A DNA stretch of 64,000 bases from Candidatus Latescibacterota bacterium. Lineage in GTDB: Bacteria > Latescibacterota > UBA2968 > GCA-2709665. The notes beneath the pieces were generated by a model, which was not told where the DNA came from, made no database searches, and saw nothing but the letters and a program-made list of their open reading frames with translations. The stretch is from positions 2,144,001 to 2,208,000 of the forward strand of contig OZ244744.1 in assembly GCA_965219455.1 (NCBI GenBank), in the 5' to 3' direction. The translations under genes and the position numbers were made by a program. Numbering within the stretch: the stretch's first letter is position 1; each line of letters begins with the position of its first letter. Below, piece by piece: positions 17,786 to 32,942 of this stretch.

Positions 17786-19764
<1,979 letters not shown>

Positions 19765-20150: not shown

Positions 20151-21854
20151 CTATTCTTCGTCCTTAAACCTTCGGTACATAAATCGTAAAGCCTCTCTCG
20201 CCTTCTCACGGACCGGATAAGGGTCTCCGCGATAATATCCGTCGTGTTGGCTTATAGAGTCCAGTAGAGCATATACGAATGAGTCATTGATATATCTCAA
20301 AGCCGTGATTGCGTCAATTCGATAATGATGAAATTCTGAATGAGCGAATTCTACAAGGGCTGTTTTGAGACGTTCTTGCTTTTCGTTGTCGCGCAAAAAC
20401 GGTTGGTTGGCGTTCAACATTGCCTCGAATACTTTCGCGGCTTCTTTTTGGACGTGAGGTTTACGAGTATCACGGAGTATATACAGAAGCGGTTCGAACG
20501 AAGGTTCTCCAATATCCATTAAACCTTGTACTGCTGGCTTCATTGAGATATTCTGAATAAAGAATGGAACAAAACGAGGGTCTTTCTGCCAACCGGTCAT
20601 TAGCAGTAATTTCCATTCAATCAAACCTTCGTGATCTTGAAATTTCAGTTTTTCGCCAGTCTCACTGTCTGTGATGTCACCGGTAACAGGGTCTACATCC
20701 AGAAAATAGCGATCGATGATATAGAGTAGCATCGTGCGGGCATTTTCTGGCCAGGGCTCCCGTGGTAAGCGATACAGGCGATATACCATACTTTCCATAA
20801 CCAGAATATTCCCTTTAATGAGATCCTCGGCCCACTCAGCATATTCTGAATCCATAGGGAATTCATTGCCGATTGTTTCTACTTCATCGTAAATATTGAT
20901 CGATCGGGCATAGCTGTGCAAATAAGTGATCTCATGCACTATTATCATTTTGTTTCGATAGGTATCGATCGAAATTGGATTCCAGTATTTGGGATCCATA
21001 AAACCTATGTCCAATGGTTCCCGCTGTATAAATCCGTGCTCCGCAAAGGTGATTGCTGTCACGCGTCTCGGTTCCTCGGTTAATTCAAGGATTCGTCCTT
21101 TGTGGTCAACTGTTATTTGAGAATGTTCTTCTTGTCGGCGGATAGTTCTCGAAGGACTATTGGGTGTTACGCTGAGGACTTCAAAGTCATGAACTTTAAT
21201 ATCCCAATTCTGGCCAAAGGTGCTTATAAGGATTTCGTCATTACCATCTTTGTCTACATCACCGAGGTTTAACCCACCCCAGTAGATTCCGGATTGATTT
21301 GACAATTGCGTGACCGTGATTGCGAAATCTTCGGTAATATTCGACCATCGGCCGATCTTTAATGTGGCTTTATTAATGCCATCATTTTCGGCAAAAACAA
21401 CCTCGTCCTGACCATCACCATTAATGTCACCCATTGCCAGGAGACCGATCACGTTATCACGAGGAATCAATAACTTCTGGTATTCATATTTCCCCTTACT
21501 TAAGTAAATTCCAAGTAGATATTGCGTTGTTTTCATATCCTTAAGCCCAAATCCTGCGACCACGAAATCTAACTGGCCGTCTCCATTTAAGTCGCCGGTA
21601 TCAAAACTACGGGCCGCAACAAATGTCTCGTGATCTTCCCAGACTTTCTCTACTCTACTATGTGGTTTAAATGCATTAAACAGCGCCAATCTTGTCGGCC
21701 AGAAACAAATCAACCTTACTGTGTCAGGATCTATAATCTCGATAGTTGCTTTATCTGTTCCGTCGAATTCGTACCATCTGAAAAACCTTGAGTCAGCAAA
21801 TAAGGGTTGTGTGAGAATCAATAAAGTGACAGAAATTATGAGTGAATTATTCAT
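20151..21854 (-). CDS. secreted FG-GAP/VCBS-repeat protein with a C-terminal HEAT-like domain
   Basis: Signal MNNSLIISVTLLILTQPLFA; GDLNGDGQLDFVV, GDINGDGQDEVVF, GDVDKDGNDEILI; C-terminal VREKAREAL. Visibly AT-rich. Confidence 0.8.
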   Translation of the reverse strand: MNNSLIISVTLLILTQPLFADSRFFRWYEFDGTDKATIEIIDPDTVRLICFWPTRLALFNAFKPHSRVEKVWEDHETFVAARSFDTGDLNGDGQLDFVVAGFGLKDMKTTQYLLGIYLSKGKYEYQKLLIPRDNVIGLLAMGDINGDGQDEVVFAENDGINKATLKIGRWSNITEDFAITVTQLSNQSGIYWGGLNLGDVDKDGNDEILISTFGQNWDIKVHDFEVLSVTPNSPSRTIRRQEEHSQITVDHKGRILELTEEPRRVTAITFAEHGFIQREPLDIGFMDPKYWNPISIDTYRNKMIIVHEITYLHSYARSINIYDEVETIGNEFPMDSEYAEWAEDLIKGNILVMESMVYRLYRLPREPWPENARTMLLYIIDRYFLDVDPVTGDITDSETGEKLKFQDHEGLIEWKLLLMTGWQKDPRFVPFFIQNISMKPAVQGLMDIGEPSFEPLLYILRDTRKPHVQKEAAKVFEAMLNANQPFLRDNEKQERLKTALVEFAHSEFHHYRIDAITALRYINDSFVYALLDSISQHDGYYRGDPYPVREKAREALRFMYRRFKDEE

Positions 21855-22007
21855 AGTGGCCTGACTGCTGTCGGAATGTCGATTGGCAGAGAATTCTGGA
21901 CTTGAACATAGCGTTGGATTCTGAAATAACACCGGCGATTAAGACCCCCCTACGTGCCAATGGAGTGAGACGATGTTCCCTGCAAGTTTAGGGCGTCCGC
22001 AAAAATA

Positions 22008-23699
22008 TCACCCCCCGTATTTGGAGATGAGATCCACAGCGGCCTCATCTCCTTTTTTCTGCGCCCAGGCGAGGGGCGTGGCCCATTCGGCGCCGGCCAG
22101 CGTGGGATCGGCCCCGCGTTCGAGATAGAGACGGGCCAGATCGCATTTGCCCCATCTGACCGCCCAGCCAAGCGGTGTGGACTGAAGGAGTTCGTCGATA
22201 ACGTTAAGATCGGCGCCGTGGTCCAGAAGGATGATGGCAAAGGCGATCCGTTCGGGTTCGGTCATAATCGGTTCTCCCCAGACAACGCCGCAGGCCGCCA
22301 GATGATGAGTAAGCCGGTACCCGAAACGACCCACGAGATTGGGGTTTACGCCGTAGTCCAGAATCATTCGAAAGATTTCGGGATAGACCGTACGATCGAA
22401 GTCGCGGAATTTGCGGTGGGGATTCGTCCGCCAGAGTCGAAGGGGCTGTTCGAGCAGGCTGAACCAGCGGCTGTCATCGGGTTCCCAATCGAGTTGCCGC
22501 AGGCACATCCCCACAATATTCGGGTCGCCGCCGCATCCTGCGGCCCAGAGCAGCTTCTCCGCGATCGACGGGTCGTTGTGGAGGGCAACGGCAGCGGCCG
22601 ACGTCTCGGCTTCGAGTCCGGCAGTGGTGTGATCCAGGATCCCGCCGTATCGAAACAGCAGTCCCTTCATCCGGTCGTCGCGGTTGTTGTACGCCGCGCC
22701 CACGGGATTCGCGCTGGCATAGATGCTGGCGTTGGGATCCGCGCCGTTCTCGAGCAGGAGTTCGGCGATTTCATAACGGGAATTGCCCGCCGCATTGGAC
22801 AGGGGCTCGCCCCACGAATACGGCCTGGATTCGTAGTGCTGCAACTGATGCCTGTCGTCCGGGTGCAGACCCAGGTCGAGCAGCAGGCGTACTATGTCGA
22901 TATCGTCGTTCTGGACGGCGATCTGCAGAAGCCCGTCCCGCTCGCTGTCGTTGGACTGAAAGCGTTCCGGATGCGCCCTTGCGAACGCGCGAACGAAGTC
23001 GAAGTCGCCAAGTGCGACCGCGGATTCGATCGATTGCTCGCATCCCGCCTGCAGCAGGATGCCCGTGCAGATCAGACACCCTTCGTTGAGCGGCCTGTTG
23101 CGCCCGCGTACATTGAGGACCGCGCCGTCGAGGGGCGATTGGCCCTCGGGCGTGAGATGCGTGATATCGGCGCCCCGATCGAGCAGTTCGCGAACCAGCC
23201 GGTAACGGCCGTGCGACGCGGCCGCGTGAATCACGCTGCCGCCATTTCGATGACACGCATCCAGCAGTTCGGGCTGACGGTCCAGGATGTCGAGCGCGGC
23301 CTTCTCCCGCCCCTCCCGGACGGCTTCGAACAGCGCGTCGTTTTCTTCGGTGATGGTAATATTCTTGCAGGCGGCCAGCTTGCGTTTTTCGTCTTCCGCC
23401 CTGATCACGTGGACGATTTCGTCCAGGCCGCGTTCCTGCGCCATCGTAAACGCGCCGGTGGCGTCGCGGTGGGGGTAGATGCCCGAATTGTGGTCCGCGC
23501 CCGCTTCCATGAGAACCCGGACCGCATCGGCGTGCCGGTTCATCACCGCGTAGTGAATCGCGCGGTGTTCGTTGTTCTCAGCCATGTGCACGTTCACCAG
23601 ATCGGGCTGCTCGCCAAGTATCTGCTTAATCCGCGAGACATCGCCGCTCCCTGCCGCCTTACAAAGATCTGCGACCCTGTAGGATCCGTTGCCGGCCAT
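22008..23699 (-). CDS. ankyrin-repeat protein
   Basis: Repeated TPLxxA / LLxxGAD units (STPLGWAVRWG, ATPLAWA, LLDRGADI); AAGGA RBS before ATG 23699. Confidence 0.9.
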   Translation of the reverse strand: MAGNGSYRVADLCKAAGSGDVSRIKQILGEQPDLVNVHMAENNEHRAIHYAVMNRHADAVRVLMEAGADHNSGIYPHRDATGAFTMAQERGLDEIVHVIRAEDEKRKLAACKNITITEENDALFEAVREGREKAALDILDRQPELLDACHRNGGSVIHAAASHGRYRLVRELLDRGADITHLTPEGQSPLDGAVLNVRGRNRPLNEGCLICTGILLQAGCEQSIESAVALGDFDFVRAFARAHPERFQSNDSERDGLLQIAVQNDDIDIVRLLLDLGLHPDDRHQLQHYESRPYSWGEPLSNAAGNSRYEIAELLLENGADPNASIYASANPVGAAYNNRDDRMKGLLFRYGGILDHTTAGLEAETSAAAVALHNDPSIAEKLLWAAGCGGDPNIVGMCLRQLDWEPDDSRWFSLLEQPLRLWRTNPHRKFRDFDRTVYPEIFRMILDYGVNPNLVGRFGYRLTHHLAACGVVWGEPIMTEPERIAFAIILLDHGADLNVIDELLQSTPLGWAVRWGKCDLARLYLERGADPTLAGAEWATPLAWAQKKGDEAAVDLISKYGG

Positions 23700-23812
23700 C
23701 TCTGTTCCTTTCCGGGTTTGCACGTCATCCAATTCCGATAGCGAAGCCGTCACCCCCCGGCGTATAAACCTGAACTCGAATTCCCGCAACCGGAGGCGTC
23801 ACCGCGAATAGT

Positions 23813-24366
23813 TCAAAGTCCGTATTCGAATGTGAGTTCCTTCTTCACATCCGTTCTCTCGACACTTTCCCTGATATCCTCCATCATCTCCAGCCACCTG
23901 TGTTTCTTGAATTTCCCGAAGTCAAAGACGAATCCCGGGAGCGCCCTGCTCTCGATCCGGCCGGCTCCTGCCCCAGAACCTCGAACTTCCCGCCTCGAAG
24001 CTGGTACCACGTCGCCGGTTTTCCGTTCTCCACGAACAATGCCTCCTGGACTCCTGAAGCCTCATATATCTGAAGTTTTTTGCCCAGGTTGGTAAATGCG
24101 TGCTTGGACTCCATTTCCAGTACGAAATTCGGCGACCCCTCGTAGACCTGGTGATCGTGGTTCTTTTTGCAGATTTGCCTGGGTCCGTTTCTGCGCACGA
24201 TCACGCCCACGTTTGGATAGACCATACAATCCGACTTACCGCCATAACTTAGCCTTACCGGAGGGAAGAGGACCACGTCCATACCTGTAGCGAGCATACG
24301 ATAGTAATTGATTACGGTAAGCACGTCCGTGTGATGTCGCGAAACGTTCGCATCGGGTATCCACAT
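23813..24366 (-). pseudogene. frameshifted Uma2 (DUF820) endonuclease-like gene
   Basis: GSPNFVLEMES..KKLQIYEASGVQE..WYQLRGGKF in one frame continues as GRIESRALPGFVFD in another frame near 23965. Confidence 0.7.
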
Positions 24367-27259: not shown

Positions 27260-28048
27260 TCAGGACTCCCAGACAAAAACCTTTTTGTAGTAGACGATCT
27301 CAAATCCGTTGCGTTCGAGGTTGCCCAACGATGTTTTCAGCATTACGAGGGTCTCGCTGCAGGCCACACGGCATCCCAGGTCCGCGGCACGATTCAGGCG
27401 GGCTCGTATAAGTGAATTCTGTCCGCCTTTTCTTCTGTGCGCCTCGGCGGTTCCTGCCCACCCGAGATAGGCGAAGTCGCCGTGATGGGCGAGTATCGCG
27501 GCGCTGACAGGCGTACCCGCGTCATACGCCAGGAAATGGTCGAATCCGGGTTGATCGACACTTTCAAGGAAAAACGTGCAGGGCCACGGATCGAATATGC
27601 GGAGAATCGCATCCTTGTAATTCTCAACCTCATGCCCCGATACGCGGCACACGTCAAGATGGGTCTGGAAAGGCGCCACTTTTTCGACGGGACGAATCAG
27701 CGTCGGATACCGGGTGCCTCCAAATGGTTTCAGACGGTTGCCCCGGAGCCACTCGATAATTTCCTCTTCCTGGGGATTCGGGCTCAGCCAGAAAAAAAAC
27801 CGTTCGGTCCCCGATTGCCTGAATACATCCAGTATGTTCAGGAGATCCGTCCGGGAAACCGTGGTCCCGCACCCGAAGAAAAATACGCCGTTTCGATTCG
27901 CCGATGGATACGGCGATGATGCGGAAGGAGGATCGACCGTGACGATGGCGTTTCCGACGATCTTATGGATCTTCGAACCGGGCGGCGCACAGCCGAGTTC
28001 CTTGTGCTTGATCTCCGTCAGAAGTTGCACGATTTCATCGGGTCTCAT
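27260..28048 (-). CDS. GNAT-family N-acetyltransferase
   Basis: [18 protein letters not shown] acetyl-CoA motif; [10 protein letters not shown]. Confidence 0.8.
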
Positions 28049-28368
28049 GTTGGGGTCGAGAACGATCTCTCGTCCAGATGGGGTTTCAGAAACTGTCCCG
28101 TAAATGACTGCCGAACCGCGGCAACCGCCGCCGGCGGGCCGGTCGCGACAACGCGTGCGCCGTGCACCCCGGGTCCGGGGCCCATTTCGATGATATGATC
28201 GGCGGCGCGTATGGTATCCTCGTCGTGCTCGACGACGATGACCGTGTTCCCGATGTCTCGGAGTTGCCGCATGGTGCTGATCATCTTGGCGTTGTCTTTC
28301 GGGTGCAAACCGATGCTGGGCTCATCGAGTACGTACAACATGCCCATGAGCCCCGAGCCGATCTGCGA
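28045..28368 (-). pseudogene. uvrA: uvrA remnant
   Basis: [47 protein letters not shown]; about 105 aa of a protein normally about 940 aa long. Confidence 0.85.
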
Positions 28369-28607
28369 GGAACGGTTTGCGCCTGGATGTTGACGTCATC
28401 TTCGCAGAGTGTAACATGGCCTTGTTTTTGTCTATCCTGCATGATGATCCACAGGTCGATATCCGAGTTCTCCCAGACTTCGTCGTAGGACAGACTGCCA
28501 AAGAGTATCGCCGCGAGTACCGTTCGGTCTTTTTCAAGTTTTCCGACCAGAGACAATAGTGCTTTCCGGTAGCGCCTCCGGATGACTTCCGGCTCGAAAT
28601 GAGACAT
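28369..28607 (-). pseudogene. truncated Pol-beta-type nucleotidyltransferase fused out of frame to the uvrA remnant
   Basis: GGAG RBS, ATG 28607, AILFGSLSYDEVWENSDIDL (GS..DxD). Confidence 0.7.
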
Positions 28608-29226
28608 GGTAACTCCACCATATAGTGTATGGGAAGGAGCACGTGATATACGCAGGTTCGAATCAGGTGTCAAGGTCAATTACCGGAAAGCGCAGGCGTC
28701 CGCGGGTGGGCGGGGAACGACCACTGGAATGCCGGATAACAGGCGAAGAAACCGAGTTTTCACACGACTGTTACGTGGGGTTGGAAAACCGGAGTATTCC
28801 GGCTCCCCGCCGTAACCTGAGCGAGATTTTTAAACCGCTAAACGACGTCGTACACATTCCTGGCGCAAAACCACAAAACCGGGCGATCGACACACCGATC
28901 GCCCGGTTCAATTTGCGAAGATCGCTCGGTCCGTTTCGCTAACGGCATTTACGGGATTGCCGCGCGCGAAGCCAGCCAGATTTCCGCGAAATTCCGCCTA
29001 AAGACCCCGCAGAATTCTCCCTCCTCACCGGTTTTGCCCAAGTAAAACGTGAATGCTCTGAAACAAGCGGATTGGTTGTTCGCGGTTCCTGATACGATTC
29101 GGCCGAACGTAGGGGTACTACCTGCAAGTTAAACGCTCTCGCAATTCTTGGATAGAAGTGTAATCTTTCGATTAGATCCCGCGCGAACGACCATGGGTCC
29201 GCACAAAATTCGGAAATTTGAGTCAC

Positions 29227-29250
29227 GTTGTATTCTCAGTTGTATTCTCA
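29227..29250. repeat. 12-bp tandem duplication
   Basis: GTTGTATTCTCA twice. Confidence 0.8.
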
Positions 29251-29274
29251 TGTATATTGAAGAGTTTAACGATA

Positions 29275-29661
29275 TCACCCCGTCGGCATCAATACCAACT
29301 TACTGAGAAGAGCCAGTTTCCTCGCGATGCTCTGCCGTTCACTCTTGTTCGCCGGGAACGGTGTGATATTGGCATGTAGTTCATGAGGCTGTGTATCCGG
29401 AATGACGTTGAGGCTGTTTTCATAAACATGCTGTGCCAAAAAATCCGCCCTTGCTTTTATTCTTCGTTCCTCGGTTTCAACGTAATCTCTGCCAATTGAC
29501 CAGACTTCGCGGTCAGCGAGGGATGAAATGCGATACACCGAAATTTGGTCGCTGTTTGATGGAGGAATAAATGCACCGAATTTTACGACCCTGTTCATAA
29601 CTGAAAATTGTCTTCTATAGAATATATATCGGGCAATTTTTTCACCTGGTGAAACATCCAT
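29275..29661 (-). CDS. small hypothetical protein, ADP-ribosyltransferase-like motif pattern
   Basis: 128 aa; EKIAR..AF..ISVYR..HANI pattern (R-S-H). The fold call is inference. Confidence 0.7.
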   Translation of the reverse strand: MDVSPGEKIARYIFYRRQFSVMNRVVKFGAFIPPSNSDQISVYRISSLADREVWSIGRDYVETEERRIKARADFLAQHVYENSLNVIPDTQPHELHANITPFPANKSERQSIARKLALLSKLVLMPTG

Positions 29662-29674
29662 ATAAAGTTCTCAA

Positions 29675-30319
29675 TTAGACGAGGAGGCTTGACAATGTTA
29701 CAATAATACCCCGCAACAAGGCAGTATCTGATAATGTACAGATTCCTTCGACTTTGCGTTTGTCGTCGAAAAAAGCACCGTAGATGACAAGATTATCTCC
29801 ATATAGTCCCATCGACACTATCCCATTCTCTGGTCGCCACTCGAAGCCAAGACTGCCATCTTCTGCCCAGCCGATGTCGGGCATGGGGACATTGTAACGA
29901 GAAAGCAGATCTAGTAAAGAATCCGCGTCATCATATGCGGAATCAGGGATAGGATCAATCTCATTACTCAAAGCCAAGGCTTCCATGGCCTCTTGGCGTG
30001 TTTTCTCTATTTGCCGTTTTGCATCATCCAATTTTCGCTGTGGAGCGTAGGTCGGCAAATGGAAATACAGGTTAGATGCATCCCCTTCAAGCAAATCTCT
30101 ATCGCTTGCCTTTGGTAGATTATAGGCCTGAGTTTGTAGATTTCGTGGGTATTCATAGTGTGATGAACGTGTTCGATGTTCGTCATTGACCGCAACGACC
30201 CACCCCTCAGTGGTGTGTAGACTTCTCGGTTCATCAATCCGACTGCCGTGAAACCAGTCATAGACGTATTTAGCCTCAAGGCTTGAGTGGTCTTCGGCCT
30301 GACGTGCGAGGGTTATCAT
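29675..30319 (-). CDS. hypothetical protein (putative antitoxin or adaptor)
   Basis: ATG overlaps the upstream TAA (TAATG); GGGGGAGG RBS; C-terminal PDIGWAEDGSLGFEW domain. Confidence 0.75.
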   Translation of the reverse strand: MITLARQAEDHSSLEAKYVYDWFHGSRIDEPRSLHTTEGWVVAVNDEHRTRSSHYEYPRNLQTQAYNLPKASDRDLLEGDASNLYFHLPTYAPQRKLDDAKRQIEKTRQEAMEALALSNEIDPIPDSAYDDADSLLDLLSRYNVPMPDIGWAEDGSLGFEWRPENGIVSMGLYGDNLVIYGAFFDDKRKVEGICTLSDTALLRGIIVTLSSLLV

Positions 30320-31137
30320 TATTTCCTCCCCCAGGTGCGAGTTTGGATGTCTTCCGTAAACAATCCAGTGAATTTCCCACGAATACAGCCATGTGCCGAC
30401 GTAAACCACGTTATCATCACGTTGTCTTCCCCAGCCTGTGGAAAGCCACGCATTGTAAAATCCGTTTGTAAAGTTTGTTTTTGATCAGATACCCGTACCC
30501 TATGACTAACGGCAAGATGTAACCTTCCGTTTAAGTCCTCTATCGGAAATGATGTCCGCAAGATCACAGATTCAGCACCTGACCAAAATGAACTCGATGG
30601 CTCAGACTTAATGAACAGCTTATATACTTCCCCAACGTCGTTAAGAGTATTCCAGCCATCACCACGCAATAATTGATCAATATAGGTCAATTCATATTGT
30701 AGTGGAACTACCTCGCCGACTTCCATTGATCTAACTATCTCCTGAAAGCGACTATAGAACTTTGCAAACCTTTCAAATATCGCAGTGAATCCAGGATATT
30801 TCTGATCTGGCTCTGTCTTGCGCCAGTTAAACGTAAATCGATCCCGCTGAATTTGAATGATGTGATTTTGTTGTTCGTGTATGAACCAAATTCGTGCGAA
30901 GTTTGGGACATTTTTAAAATGCAACTCAGTCTCTTGGTTTGGGTGATCTAGATTTTCGATTGTAGGCATCACAGGCGGTTGTTCCACGACCTCTGAGAAC
31001 CCCACCTTTTTGAATTCCTCCCACATCACTCCTAGATGGGGAGCCAGCAACATATCGAGAGACTTGAAGAGTACACTCAATACCACCTCATCTACCGGTG
31101 GTCGTACGTAATCGAGCTCATTGTGCACGGAGTCCAT
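30319..31137 (-). CDS. TIGR04255-like protein
   Basis: YVRPPVDEVVLSVLF, RIWF, IQIQRDRFTFNWRK, YPGF, ELTYID, F..AH..I...F; GAGAGGTG RBS. Confidence 0.8.
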   Translation of the reverse strand: MDSVHNELDYVRPPVDEVVLSVLFKSLDMLLAPHLGVMWEEFKKVGFSEVVEQPPVMPTIENLDHPNQETELHFKNVPNFARIWFIHEQQNHIIQIQRDRFTFNWRKTEPDQKYPGFTAIFERFAKFYSRFQEIVRSMEVGEVVPLQYELTYIDQLLRGDGWNTLNDVGEVYKLFIKSEPSSSFWSGAESVILRTSFPIEDLNGRLHLAVSHRVRVSDQKQTLQTDFTMRGFPQAGEDNVMITWFTSAHGCIRGKFTGLFTEDIQTRTWGRK

Positions 31138-31807
31138 GAGGTGTCACCTCTCAAGATCTTAAACACGTACCCGATCTAATTGTGATAACGCCTGATTGAA
31201 ATGTATAGTTTCACTAAATGCGATGCGTATGCTTGATCTATTATGAGACGTTACCTTTTTGTACATTACATCCTCAATGCTCGGAAATTTCCATGTCGCC
31301 TATATGTAAATTAACATATGGAAGCGTCCAAACAAAGCCAAATAGCGATATCTCCGATATCAGTCGCAACGATCAGGTCGTCTGCAGGTATACCCTCGAA
31401 CGGGGAGAATCCGCGGCGCGATATTAAACGACGTCAAATGGAAACTATATGCAGTCAATGGTCAGATCCGATTGATGCTTGATCATCGGGTCTGGGCAGT
31501 TGTACTATGCAGCTTCTCTTTCGTGGAGTAGTTCAAACATTGATCCGACAAATACGTTCGACGCGGTATCCAATATTACCATATTTCATGGTAATTCTAT
31601 GTGCGAGGAGTGTCTGACACTATAGAAGGGTGATCCGAAACGCAAGCTTTTGAATATCATTGGAAGTTCCGATCGAATTCATAGCCAAGAACTGATGCAG
31701 TATTTCACTATTCCTTTCGACAGCAACTTCAAACGACATAGATTGGCGTGCGGATCGTACTCGAGTTCCGGCTGCCTCGCTTCGGCAGTATCAGGACATC
31801 TGTTCCC

Positions 31808-31836
31808 TTGACGAATCCGAACATTTCCAGTATATT
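31808..31836 (+). promoter_or_regulatory. sigma70-type promoter of the leader-peptide/TonB operon
   Basis: TTGACG-17 bp-TATATT. Confidence 0.6.
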
Positions 31837-31881
31837 TTAGCTGTATCTCGAAAAGGCTTACCCTCTCCAGGGACGGTAGAG

Positions 31882-32157
31882 ATGTTTTATTCCTCCAGAC
31901 GGATTCATCCTGTTGTCGTATTCGCTCTGGCGATATTCGCGGCCTACCTGGCGGTATTCTTACTTGCCGCCTTCCCCGGTCACGATCACGATCAACAATG
32001 TACTGTCTGCGCCTGGTTCAACAACCTGAGCATCGGTTTGCCGGCAGTACTGGTGTTTCACCTTTGCTTCCTGCATTTCCGGCAGTCGTACTCCACGTGC
32101 CGGTCCCGTCGCACTTCCTTCCTCCTTCCCGATGGACGCGCCCCTCCTTTGTCCTGA
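31882..32157 (+). CDS. DUF2946/CruR-like leader peptide (TM, HDHD, CxxC, RAPP)
   Basis: Hydrophobic N-terminus, GHDHDQQCTVC, C-terminal GRAPPLS; upstream of a TonB-dependent receptor. Confidence 0.75.
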   Translation: MFYSSRRIHPVVVFALAIFAAYLAVFLLAAFPGHDHDQQCTVCAWFNNLSIGLPAVLVFHLCFLHFRQSYSTCRSRRTSFLLPDGRAPPLS

Positions 32158-32444
32158 TCCATCCCCCAGTGTCCTGAGGACACTTCCGCAGTTTTTCGCG
32201 CATTTTCCAAATTGTATCAGATCCGCTCTACAACTGTGTTCACGTTCACAGGAATCCGGATTCCCTGGACAGTAACACGGCTCTGCCCCTGCCGCGATTC
32301 TCTCTCTGTGTCCGGCAGGAATGCGGTTCAGTAAAGCGGGAATACCAGCCAGGAAAACGGCATGCCACCAGCATGGTGAAATATCCGTATCGCGCCTTGC
32401 CAGTTGCGGGTGAAGGTGAAATCCTGGCACACGGGAGACCCCAG

Positions 32445-32942
32445 ATGCTTCGCTTGATGAAAATGATAACATCTTGTACCAACATTGCCACGGCAGCGGT
32501 CTTAACCGTGTTCCTGGCCGCTTGTGGCAAGGACGACCCCCTGACGCCACAGGAGGAACATTACGAAGCCGAAGGCCTGGTTCTCATCGACTCCGGCCAC
32601 CGGTTCTTCCGGTATTTCCAGGTTAAGGTGGACTCGGACGACGGCCGGGTGGACGTCCTCGAGGTTCCTCACGGCCAACTCACCAGCCATTGGAGCATCC
32701 GTTTCCTGGATGAAGACGGAAACGAAATGGCGCCCCCCGGCGGCGAGGGCCACACTTTCACGTGGGAAATTGCGGATAAGTCGATCGTGGAAGTGGTCCA
32801 GGACGAGGGCGACGAGGGTAAATTCGTCTTCTACCTGCGCGGTCTCGAAGCCGGCGAAACCACCATCAAGCTTCAGATCTCGCACGAAGGCCACGTGGAC
32901 TTCACCACGCTACCCATTCCGGTGCGCGTCGAGTCACAATAA
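32445..32942 (+). CDS. lipoprotein, His/acidic, possibly metal-binding
   Basis: Lipobox LAAC; EEHYEAEG, HEGHVDF; GGGAG RBS before ATG 32445. Confidence 0.8.
   Translation: MLRLMKMITSCTNIATAAVLTVFLAACGKDDPLTPQEEHYEAEGLVLIDSGHRFFRYFQVKVDSDDGRVDVLEVPHGQLTSHWSIRFLDEDGNEMAPPGGEGHTFTWEIADKSIVEVVQDEGDEGKFVFYLRGLEAGETTIKLQISHEGHVDFTTLPIPVRVESQ

Follow-up and report, generated by a model that had tools for sequence, protein, structure and literature searches.

Gene layout and surroundings

The window analysed here is a whole stretch of 64,000 nucleotides, in which three intact open reading frames, referred to as g1, g2 and g3, lie close together on the minus strand. The features of the locus are as follows:

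30319-31137, minus strand: g1, intact ORF of 272 aa
29675-30319, minus strand: g2, intact ORF of 214 aa, its ATG at 30319-30317
29275-29661, minus strand: g3, intact ORF of 128 aa
28876-28909, minus strand: terminator-like hairpin with a 15-bp stem (9 G-C pairs), about 370 nt downstream of g3
31138-31880, no strand: AT-rich stretch upstream of g1 that holds no minus-strand ORF of at least 40 aa

The TAA stop of g1 and the ATG of g2 have one base in common (TAATG) and g2 is separated from g3 by a gap of 13 nt, which bears out the tight, co-oriented trio of the original prediction. The AT-rich island that it described is equally apparent, the GC content being 0.44-0.46 in the 1-kb windows of 29001-32000 versus about 0.56-0.58 on either side, and the decayed genes that it placed on one flank correspond to two remnants: a 100-aa ORF (28048-28347) matching only residues ~525-611 of the 972-aa UvrA (E 4e-57) and, overlapping it, a 132-aa ORF (28284-28679) in which a Polbeta nucleotidyltransferase motif is all that is kept. 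The hairpin marks the edge of the stretch common to related loci, and the similarity to two of them (L002 and L004) stops at 28872-28875. Rfam and repeat scans of 28500-32500 yielded no Rfam match and no repeats, and a promoter scan upstream of g1 disclosed no convincing site.

Distribution, mobility and restriction-modification context

Using the g1 profile, through which all loci were reached, we found 29 related loci, mostly from Poribacteria and Latescibacterota. In 27 of them g1, g2 and g3 followed one another in this order, all co-oriented, in agreement with the proposal that the triad is a conserved unit; the two exceptions were a locus that ends at a contig end after g2 (L018) and another with a g1 fragment only (L029). 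In 23 of 28 loci, the stop of g1 ran into the start of g2 with an overlap of 1 or 4 nt. Since dN/dS ranged from 0.13 to 0.40 in all 15 gene comparisons, all three genes are under purifying selection.

The triad had a lower GC content than its flanks in every one of the 26 loci with flanks, and one Latescibacterota clade fell among the Poribacteria copies, with a cross-phylum amino-acid identity of 53-63%. IS elements and an integrase were found near the triad in loci L004, L010 and L025, and in L004 g1 was split by IS copies and g3 frameshifted while g2 was intact. The triad is a horizontally moving module, exchanged between unrelated phyla. Both Poribacteria and Latescibacterota are groups of sponge symbionts. 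The genomes of sponge symbionts are reported to be enriched in restriction-modification (R-M) and toxin-antitoxin genes (PMC5649159). A distant three-gene set headed by a TIGR04255 protein (the family of g1, see below) adjoins a MobF relaxase on a Mycobacterium paragordonae plasmid. The two genes that follow did not match the g2 and g3 profiles significantly with HMMER (E 2.3 and 1.5), and hhalign gave P 0.0024 over 119 columns for gene 3 and P 0.049 for gene 2, which we take as a lead only; a search of plasmids with the plasmid TIGR04255 protein returned only itself. This foreign composition in every locus, the mixing of phyla, the neighbouring IS elements and integrase and the plasmid set could all be accounted for by a selfish addiction module that stabilises its island or plasmid and plays no anti-phage role. 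We consider this improbable, as the embedding in R-M operons described below is better explained by defence, even if the two roles are not exclusive.

The extra copies of g2 and g3 were distributed unequally. Nine of 14 extra g2 copies had no g3 after them (one lay at a contig end), whereas all four extra g3 genes (three intact, one split) had g2 directly upstream. Thus, orphan g2 genes are common and no intact g3 without an upstream g2 exists among the loci, a toxin-like asymmetry between the two genes.

Genes or fragments of hsdS upstream and hsdM downstream, on the strand of the triad, placed it inside a type I R-M operon in 12 of 28 triad loci; counting every locus with an hsd neighbour, whole or fragmentary, on one side or both, the number was 16 of 28. 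In the other 12 there was no adjacent hsd gene, and the triad of the window has neither hsd genes nor their remnants: no hsdS remnant was detectable in 31138-31880, and tblastn with Hsd proteins, UPF0175 and fragments disclosed none within the window. PrrC and TgvAB are described as genes embedded in type I R-M operons (PMC12707154; PMC11411939), and a search by "guilt by embedding" has served to find defence systems (10.1101/2024.02.24.581848; 10.1101/2024.01.29.577857). The triad is an additional candidate among the defence genes embedded in such operons. The original prediction mentioned neither this embedding nor the TBP-like fold of g1 and the superfamily size of g3 presented in the next section.

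The same position between hsdS and hsdM raises the question of whether the triad guards or assists the type I R-M enzyme, silenced by the Hsd complex and fired by a phage anti-restriction protein, or else a modulator of restriction. PrrC offers a precedent, as it sits in a type Ic locus and a phage inhibitor of the type Ic enzyme activates it (PMC1484252; PMC12707154). However, the triad and PrrC have no domain in common and, in the window as in the 12 loci lacking an adjoining hsd gene, the genes are intact under purifying selection, so that we regard this role as unlikely.

Protein families and the three-chain model

The residues and segments referred to in this section are:

30110-30142, minus strand: g2 motif NLQTQAYNLPK, residues 60-70, in the variable N-terminal extension; modelled on the g1 sheet
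29678-30022, minus strand: g2 C-terminal domain, about residues 100-214; widely conserved; modelled on g3
29629-29631, 29539-29541 and 29374-29376, minus strand: codons of g3 residues R11, S41 and H96, in a small alpha/beta domain

The likeness of g1 to TIGR04255 noticed beforehand turned out to be full membership, with 63.7 bits over a curated cut-off of 30 and a full-length match (NCBIfam, E 2.3e-17; model positions 2-250 of 252). To our knowledge, this curated family has no assigned role, and TIGR04255 (or CHP04255) was not mentioned in the literature searched, so that the three-gene module represents its first functional context. There were 150 g1 homologues, with 53-100% identity among the 120 listed; no Pfam family matched at E<=1 and nothing under E 0.1 was found in the PDB by sequence or profile. 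The AF2 model of g1 (pLDDT 79.8, pTM 0.82) is a duplicated TBP-like beta-alpha-beta4-alpha saddle, for which the best Foldseek PDB matches were TBP core domains (E 2e-4 to 1e-3, prob ~1.0), with TM values of just 0.24-0.31 by query and an rmsd above 10 A. The fold thus matches TBP-like domains, not SecB, and no SecB-like features were found in g1.

The 167 homologues of g2 showed wide conservation only in the C-terminal ~115 aa, and the 18 invariant columns of a g2 alignment all fell between D122 and L202, which is in keeping with the low-structure N-terminal half and compact C-terminal domain predicted at first. No relative of g2 was found in Pfam, NCBIfam, PHROG, PADLOC or the PDB, and its C-terminal domain matched only unnamed clusters in the ESM Atlas. 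The N-terminal extension goes with g1. The strict pattern [LMPV]QTxx[YF] was present in 19 of 28 triad g2 proteins versus none of 14 extra copies, and "LQT" in 31 of 43 long g2 homologues; moreover, the triad g2 proteins measured 156-253 aa (27 complete) and the extra copies away from g1 129-148 aa (11 complete). In g2-g3 pairs without g1, g2 had no extension, and its start often corresponded to the initial ~17 residues of g1. Of 77 short g2 proteins, 32 began with a stretch matching the N-terminal 26 aa of g1, compared with one of 43 long ones and none of 149 g3-family proteins; therefore, by their sequences the g2-g3 pairs look like deletion derivatives in which g1 and the extension were lost together. 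In one locus (L026, 8316-9026) a g2 copy was fused to a UPF0175-like, antitoxin-type DNA-binding domain.

The AF2 model of g3 (pLDDT 96.3) is a small alpha/beta domain. In an alignment of 76 distant relatives S41 and H96 were invariant and R11 was conserved in at least 90%, so the Arg, Ser and His to which the original prediction drew attention are indeed the most conserved residues of the family; the ADP-ribosyltransferase (ART) fold that it derived from them was not established. Tpt1/KptA proteins were the only coherent Foldseek PDB matches, and these were weak (prob 0.25-0.85, TM 0.39-0.50 by query, E 0.1-0.7, none at E<=0.001). No ART-family match was found at the sequence level, and hhalign of the g3 profile with E. 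coli KptA disclosed no relation. The classical ART catalytic triad is H-Y-E or R-S-E, with the Glu on strand 5. In g3, the Arg on strand 1, the Ser on strand 2 and the conserved residue on strand 5 follow what we take to be the order of the R-S-E triad, but strand 5 carries H96-A-N98, i.e. His96 and Asn98 in place of the Glu, and a conserved catalytic Glu is absent. As a small alpha/beta domain g3 resembles ART-fold enzymes (Tpt1/KptA, and toxins such as CmdT and DarT), and it departs from them in TM, catalytic residues and sequence; a nucleic-acid- or NAD-directed ART-like activity is no more than our leading guess.

Searches with g3 in Pfam, NCBIfam and PHROGs gave nothing credible, and the 76 distant relatives only scattered single chance matches in the same libraries; neither g2 nor g3 matched a known type II toxin-antitoxin family (Pfam, NCBIfam, PHROG), and neither these proteins nor their profiles found anything under E 0.1 in the PDB by sequence. 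A BFVD fold search with g3 returned one unnamed protein (E 9e-3), the rest being noise without a named match, the ESM Atlas contained only unnamed clusters, and tblastn of g3 and one distant relative against plasmids and phages gave no match. No significant structural or sequence match of g3 to any known toxin was found. This work defines two unnamed families (g2 and g3), and that of g3 is large, with 2524 cluster representatives at E<=1e-3. A recurring weak PDB match of g3 to eIF4E (E 0.2-0.4) was judged to be due to chance, and a polymorphic-toxin/immunity reading was rejected, since g3, with its 128 aa, stands alone and has no N-terminal delivery domain.

The matches to Tpt1/KptA, which are RNA 2'-phosphotransferases, are what would recommend a non-conflict enzyme complex, for example a Tpt1-like RNA-end or NAD-linked repair or modification enzyme with two regulatory subunits. 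We find this highly improbable, not only for the weakness of these matches and the hhalign result with KptA, but also because a patchy distribution on islands and inside R-M operons, with extra g2-g3 cassettes in tandem and with decayed copies, is atypical of housekeeping enzymes.

A three-chain model of g1, g2 and g3 reached an ipSAE of 0.84 versus 0.01 for the best of three controls; the mark used for this score, which 116 of 157 solved complexes attain as against 2 of 215 mismatched pairs, is a rough guide here, given that the job had its own alignments and three chains. At least 36% of the contacts agreed between runs, and the partner pLDDT was at least 61. In the model, g2 residues 60-70 lie on the g1 sheet and touch the invariant E17, Q95, N104 and E149 among others, and g2 residues 103-193 touch g3 residues 14-37, 65-66 and 106-118 with an expected error of 0.7-1.0 A. 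As modelled, g2 would thus be a bridge, with its C-terminal domain on g3 and the LQTQxY of its disordered N-terminal extension on the g1 sheet, in line with the binding of the g2 N-terminus by g1 that was first suggested. A control that kept g2 and g3 and replaced g1 scored 0.00; the g2-g3 interface is therefore confident in the three-chain model only and not supported on its own by the complex job.

TBP folds bind DNA, and g1 could consequently be a regulator, its saddle sitting on the operator of a two-gene g2-g3 toxin-antitoxin pair and g2 acting as co-repressor through the motif. The TBP core domains as the best fold matches, the existence of g2-g3 pairs without g1 and the fusion of g2 to a UPF0175-like domain, which suggests that regulation is added modularly, are compatible with this. 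On the other hand, the model has the g2 peptide on the g1 sheet, with conserved sheet residues in that interface, the TM to TBP is low and no repeat or operator-like element was found upstream. We consequently see this reading as quite unlikely.

Interpretation and comparison with known systems

We believe that the triad is a mobile three-component toxin-antitoxin-like module, most likely with an abortive-infection type of defence, an explanation that we hold with slightly more conviction than doubt. It probably combines a toxin and the protein that neutralises it with a third one, a holder, and would then be a new candidate anti-phage system. The analysis shows the gene arrangement, conservation, purifying selection, R-M embedding in relatives and the predicted folds and interfaces, whereas the toxicity of g3, its neutralisation by g2, the trigger and the chemistry are inferred. 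Under this explanation the effector would be g3, whose small, enzyme-like domain has an Arg, a Ser and a His conserved, and the C-terminal domain of g2 would neutralise it by direct binding. The LQTQxY motif in the disordered extension of g2 would dock on the concave sheet of g1, a putative holder or sensor, and g2 would stay competent as long as the motif is held; with a competitor present (e.g. a phage or anti-restriction protein) or g1 lost, g2 would be freed or become unstable and g3 would be released.

A bolder version, rather unlikely as a whole, is that TIGR04255 constitutes a new, non-SecB class of holders or sensors for toxin-antitoxin modules, whose TBP-like saddle reads the antitoxin LQTQxY. 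The module would guard type I restriction enzymes, and a phage anti-restriction protein or other phage product would displace the motif and unleash the Arg-Ser-His effector. The family of this effector would be new, with about 2,500 clusters that no domain database contains, and would act by modifying nucleic acid or consuming NAD+. Should our model be right, chaperone addiction as seen in toxin-antitoxin-chaperone (TAC) systems would have evolved independently on an unrelated fold, and the chemistry of a new effector would be there to discover.

The check for a named system set out at the start found none: PADLOC gave nothing for g1 or g2 (E<=1) and, for g3, a weak match to PDC-M32B (E 0.011), its only match in any library. 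This match was consistent in the family, as 24 of 35 close relatives of g3 showed it at E<=1 (best 3.3e-4) and 13 of 76 distant ones at E<=0.01. PDC-M32 is a PADLOC candidate of two genes, A and B, and PDC systems owe their definition to an embedded position within BREX, DISARM or type I R-M (10.1101/2024.01.29.577857). In contrast, none of g1, g2 and g3 matched PDC-M32A, and the g3 match is far weaker than the 5.9e-38 of a member given in a table of another report (PMC12429752 Table 4). With PrrC and TgvAB the triad shares, in relatives, the position inside an hsd operon, but no domains, and it also persists without R-M.

The closest analogy is with TAC systems such as HigBAC and CmdTAC, and the CmdTAC-like triad proposed at the outset stands at the level of logic, although not as TAC membership, g1 having no likeness to SecB. 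There are three genes in each case, and the antitoxin, a putative one here, has an extra unstructured segment for recognition by the third protein (a modelled contact in the present case), which the antitoxin would need. In the triad, g1 and the extension of g2 come and go jointly. The toxin of TAC systems is set free when phage proteins compete for the chaperone (10.1101/2024.02.24.581848; PMC11618068). The differences are that the third protein is a TIGR04255/TBP-like saddle here and SecB-like in TAC, that the extension is N-terminal whereas that of TAC is a C-terminal ChAD, that the gene order is holder-antitoxin-toxin, and that g3 is not HigB, CmdT or a member of any known toxin family. 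The best reading is that the triad is not a named system but a toxin-antitoxin-holder module, and that it works like TAC systems without being one of them.

A three-gene module in an AT-rich island

As proposed in the original prediction, g1, g2 and g3 (proposed holder/sensor, antitoxin and toxin/effector, respectively) are three intact, packed and co-oriented genes in an AT-rich island with decayed genes on one side. All of these points were borne out by the ORFs, by the GC content (0.44-0.46 in 1-kb windows of 29001-32000 vs about 0.56-0.58 around them) and by the remnants downstream. The features of the window are as follows.

Features of the window
17946-19313, minus strand: group II intron reverse transcriptase/maturase (RVT_1 E 1.9e-36, GIIM E 1.5e-13)
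20154-23789, minus strand: second AT-rich island (GC 0.44 at 20-22 kb), with a 593-aa FG-GAP repeat protein
23887-24366, minus strand: Uma2-family putative restriction endonuclease (E 4.7e-7)
28048-28679, minus strand: decayed genes downstream of the triad
28876-28909: strong terminator-like hairpin, closing the triad unit downstream
29275-29661, minus strand: g3, intact ORF, 128 aa, 13 nt after g2
29675-30319, minus strand: g2, intact ORF, 214 aa from an ATG that overlaps the g1 stop codon by one base (TAATG)
30319-31137, minus strand: g1, intact ORF, 272 aa

In the decayed stretch, a 100-aa ORF corresponds to residues ~525-611 of UvrA only, and the 132-aa ORF overlapping it keeps only a Polbeta nucleotidyltransferase motif (residues 47-87), perhaps a vestige of an MNT-type antitoxin. 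Since the stretch is 87-91% identical in the relatives' loci L001 and L004, these remnants are old. A 593-aa ankyrin-repeat protein adjoins the FG-GAP protein of the second island; eukaryote-like repeat proteins are typical of sponge symbionts. A Uma2 gene is also found upstream of the triad in locus L028.

A scan with the g1 profile, using one genome per species, yielded 29 loci, labelled as Poribacteria (21), Latescibacterota (4), "uncultured bacterium" (3) and Solirubrobacterales (1). The neighbourhood proved conserved: 27 of these loci have g1, g2 and g3 consecutively on a single strand, counting L004, which is decayed, and L005, where the contig stops inside g3; the two exceptions were L018, which ends inside g2, and L029, a broken g1 alone. 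In 23 of 28 loci, the end of g1 overlaps the beginning of g2 by 1 or 4 nt. For every gene, dN/dS against five relatives lies at 0.13-0.40, and the triad has a lower GC than its flanks in all 26 loci with flanks. The triad is a real, conserved three-gene module. Amino-acid identity across Poribacteria and Latescibacterota is 53-63%, and the Latescibacterota copies and the window form one clade (98/98) amid Poribacteria branches, with a chromosomal site beside a TonB-dependent receptor gene common to the window and L001-L004. We infer one inter-phylum transfer, in one direction or the other, followed by vertical descent.

Restriction-modification context and probable deletion traces

The typical Poribacteria setting of the triad is inside a type I restriction-modification (R-M) operon, all on one strand, in the order hsdR, small ORF, hsdS, two small genes (one of them for a UPF0175 protein), g1-g2-g3 and hsdM, sometimes with further g2(-g3) cassettes between triad and hsdM. 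Genes or fragments of hsd lie on both sides in 12 of the 28 triad loci (L003, L006-L010, L014, L019-L023) and on at least one side in 16 (adding L013, L015, L018 and L024); no hsd remnant was detectable in the window. The PrrC anticodon nuclease and the TgvAB restriction system are likewise encoded within type I R-M operons (PMC12707154, PMC11411939), an arrangement that served to predict and confirm defence systems and from which PADLOC's candidate (PDC) systems arose (10.1101/2024.01.29.577857). We regard the triad as a candidate defence system of the R-M-embedded kind. Between hsdS and the triad, L006-L009, L014, L015, L019 and L023 carry a ~98-aa unnamed ORF and a UPF0175 gene, probably a second toxin-antitoxin-like pair of the same operon. 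In L006, L007, L008, L011, L013-L015, L017, L021, L023, L024 and L026, the triad or R-M island has on its downstream side a ~800-aa gene that combines ARMT1-like and MobA-like NTP-transferase domains and marks a conserved Poribacteria insertion site.

Further copies of g2 and g3 occur that are not adjacent to g1. Triad g2 has 156-253 aa (27 complete copies), and these extra g2 have 129-148 aa (11 complete) and lack the N-terminal extension. The start of 32 of 77 short g2 homologues matches the first 26 g1 residues significantly, compared with that of 1 of 43 long ones and 0 of 149 g3-family proteins, and the junctions are of several kinds. The simplest reading is that deletions, occurring repeatedly, took the g1 body along with the g2 extension and left g2-g3 as an autonomous pair; such a joint loss would be expected were g2 made dependent on g1 by its extension. 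Downstream of the triad in L007, L008, L013, L020 and L023, additional cassettes of g2 or g2-g3 stand in tandem, between triad and hsdM or beyond hsdM; their short g2 copies have N-termini similar to the first ~17 g1 residues.

Nine of the 14 extra g2 copies are not followed by g3 (one of them at a contig end). The four extra g3 genes (three intact, one split, the second g3 of L023) all have g2 directly upstream, so that no intact g3 occurs without g2. In L004 (2620-5920 and 7351-7736), g2 is intact, g3 carries a frameshift and two IS copies split g1; the locus has two identical DDE_Tnp_1_4 transposase genes, of which one splits g1. This asymmetry, with orphan g2 and no orphan intact g3, matches the pattern of a toxin-antitoxin pair.

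The proteins and their predicted complex

The g1 protein belongs to the TIGR04255 family (63.7 bits vs a cut-off of 30). Its AF2 model (pLDDT 79.8, pTM 0.82) has two beta-alpha-beta4-alpha halves, and the best PDB matches were core domains of the TATA-binding protein (E 2e-4 to 1e-3, probability ~1), although the TM by query was only 0.24-0.31 and the rmsd >10 A; with caution, the predicted fold may be described as a TBP-like saddle.

For g2, no relative was found in Pfam, NCBIfam, PHROGs, PADLOC or PDB. Wide conservation is limited to its C-terminal ~115 residues, and the 18 invariant columns of a 43-sequence alignment all fall within D122-L202. The conserved motif [LMPV]QTxx[YF] is present in 19 of 28 triad g2 and 0 of 14 extra g2, with variants such as LQTYEN or WQTQDY in other triad copies. 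In L026 (8316-9026) the C-domain of g2 is joined at its C-terminal side to a UPF0175-like segment, a DNA-binding domain of the antitoxin type, which fits g2 as antitoxin.

One three-chain prediction was run on g1 and g3 with g2 as the partner chain and an alignment for each chain. It gave an ipSAE of 0.84 (runs 0.82, 0.84 and 0.84) vs 0.01 for the best control, with a contact agreement between runs of at least 36% and a partner pLDDT of at least 61. This ipSAE mark was attained by 116 of 157 solved complexes as against 2 of 215 mismatched pairs, counts that hold just roughly here because own alignments and three chains were used. In agreement with the binding of the g2 N-terminus by g1 anticipated earlier, g2 residues 60-70 (NLQTQAYNLPK) are modelled on the g1 sheet (residues 16-21, 84, 93-95, 102-107, 149-155 and 211-224), where the predicted contacts include the invariant E17, Q95, N104 and E149. 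The expected errors are lowest (0.7-1.0 A) where g2 residues 103-193 are placed on g3 residues 14-37, 65-66 and 106-118; a control in which g1 was replaced and g2 and g3 were retained scored 0.00, and therefore the g2-g3 contact has no independent support from the ternary job.

The g3 model is of high confidence (pLDDT 96.3). A profile of 35 close relatives matched 2524 cluster representatives at E<=1e-3 and 1407 at E<=1e-10, among 1.84 billion, and the 150 matches listed are small proteins (101-194 aa). In an alignment of 76 distant sequences drawn from these 150, S41 and H96 are invariant and R11, F31, P33, W54, R71, L84 and A97 at least 90% conserved; against Pfam and NCBIfam, the 76 gave no family, only single chance matches. 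The R-S-E catalytic triad of ADP-ribosyltransferases is paralleled in its order by the conserved Arg, Ser and His of g3, on strands 1, 2 and 5, with no catalytic Glu. The only coherent structural matches were Tpt1/KptA RNA 2'-phosphotransferases of three archaea (probability 0.25-0.85, TM by query 0.39-0.50, E 0.1-0.7), but the fold search gave no match of any kind at E<=0.001, BFVD nothing named, and hhalign of the g3 profile with E. coli KptA nothing. We treat the ADP-ribosyltransferase identity of the original prediction, neither disproved nor demonstrated, as possible but rather doubtful, a lead and not a result.

Comparison with known systems

The triad is no named system, as the PADLOC search confirmed. 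The sole library relative of the g3 family is the PADLOC candidate PDC-M32B, matched weakly by the window g3 (E 0.011), by 24 of the 35 close relatives at E<=1 (best 3.3e-4) and by 13 of the 76 distant ones at E<=0.01. Outside these phyla, g1 matched a single plasmid gene, an annotated TIGR04255 gene on a plasmid of Mycobacterium paragordonae, with a MobF relaxase beside it and two overlapping hypothetical genes (180 and 142 aa) after it (locus L031, NZ_CP025547.1, 4965-6704). The alignment of the third gene to the g3 profile spans 119 columns and pairs the Arg, Ser and His (hhalign P 0.0024, probability 12%), the second gene gave a weak alignment only (0.049), and neither was significant with HMMER; this hints that the three-gene layout may be general for TIGR04255.

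The triad, originally predicted to be analogous to CmdTAC, is not a member of the toxin-antitoxin-chaperone (TAC) systems, since it has neither a SecB-like protein nor a C-terminal chaperone-addiction (ChAD) element and its toxin candidate belongs to no known toxin family. The likeness in working is retained: the triad most likely works like a TAC system. In TAC systems, the ChAD element makes the antitoxin chaperone-dependent (10.1101/2024.02.24.581848), and by analogy the extension of g2 would make g2 dependent on g1.
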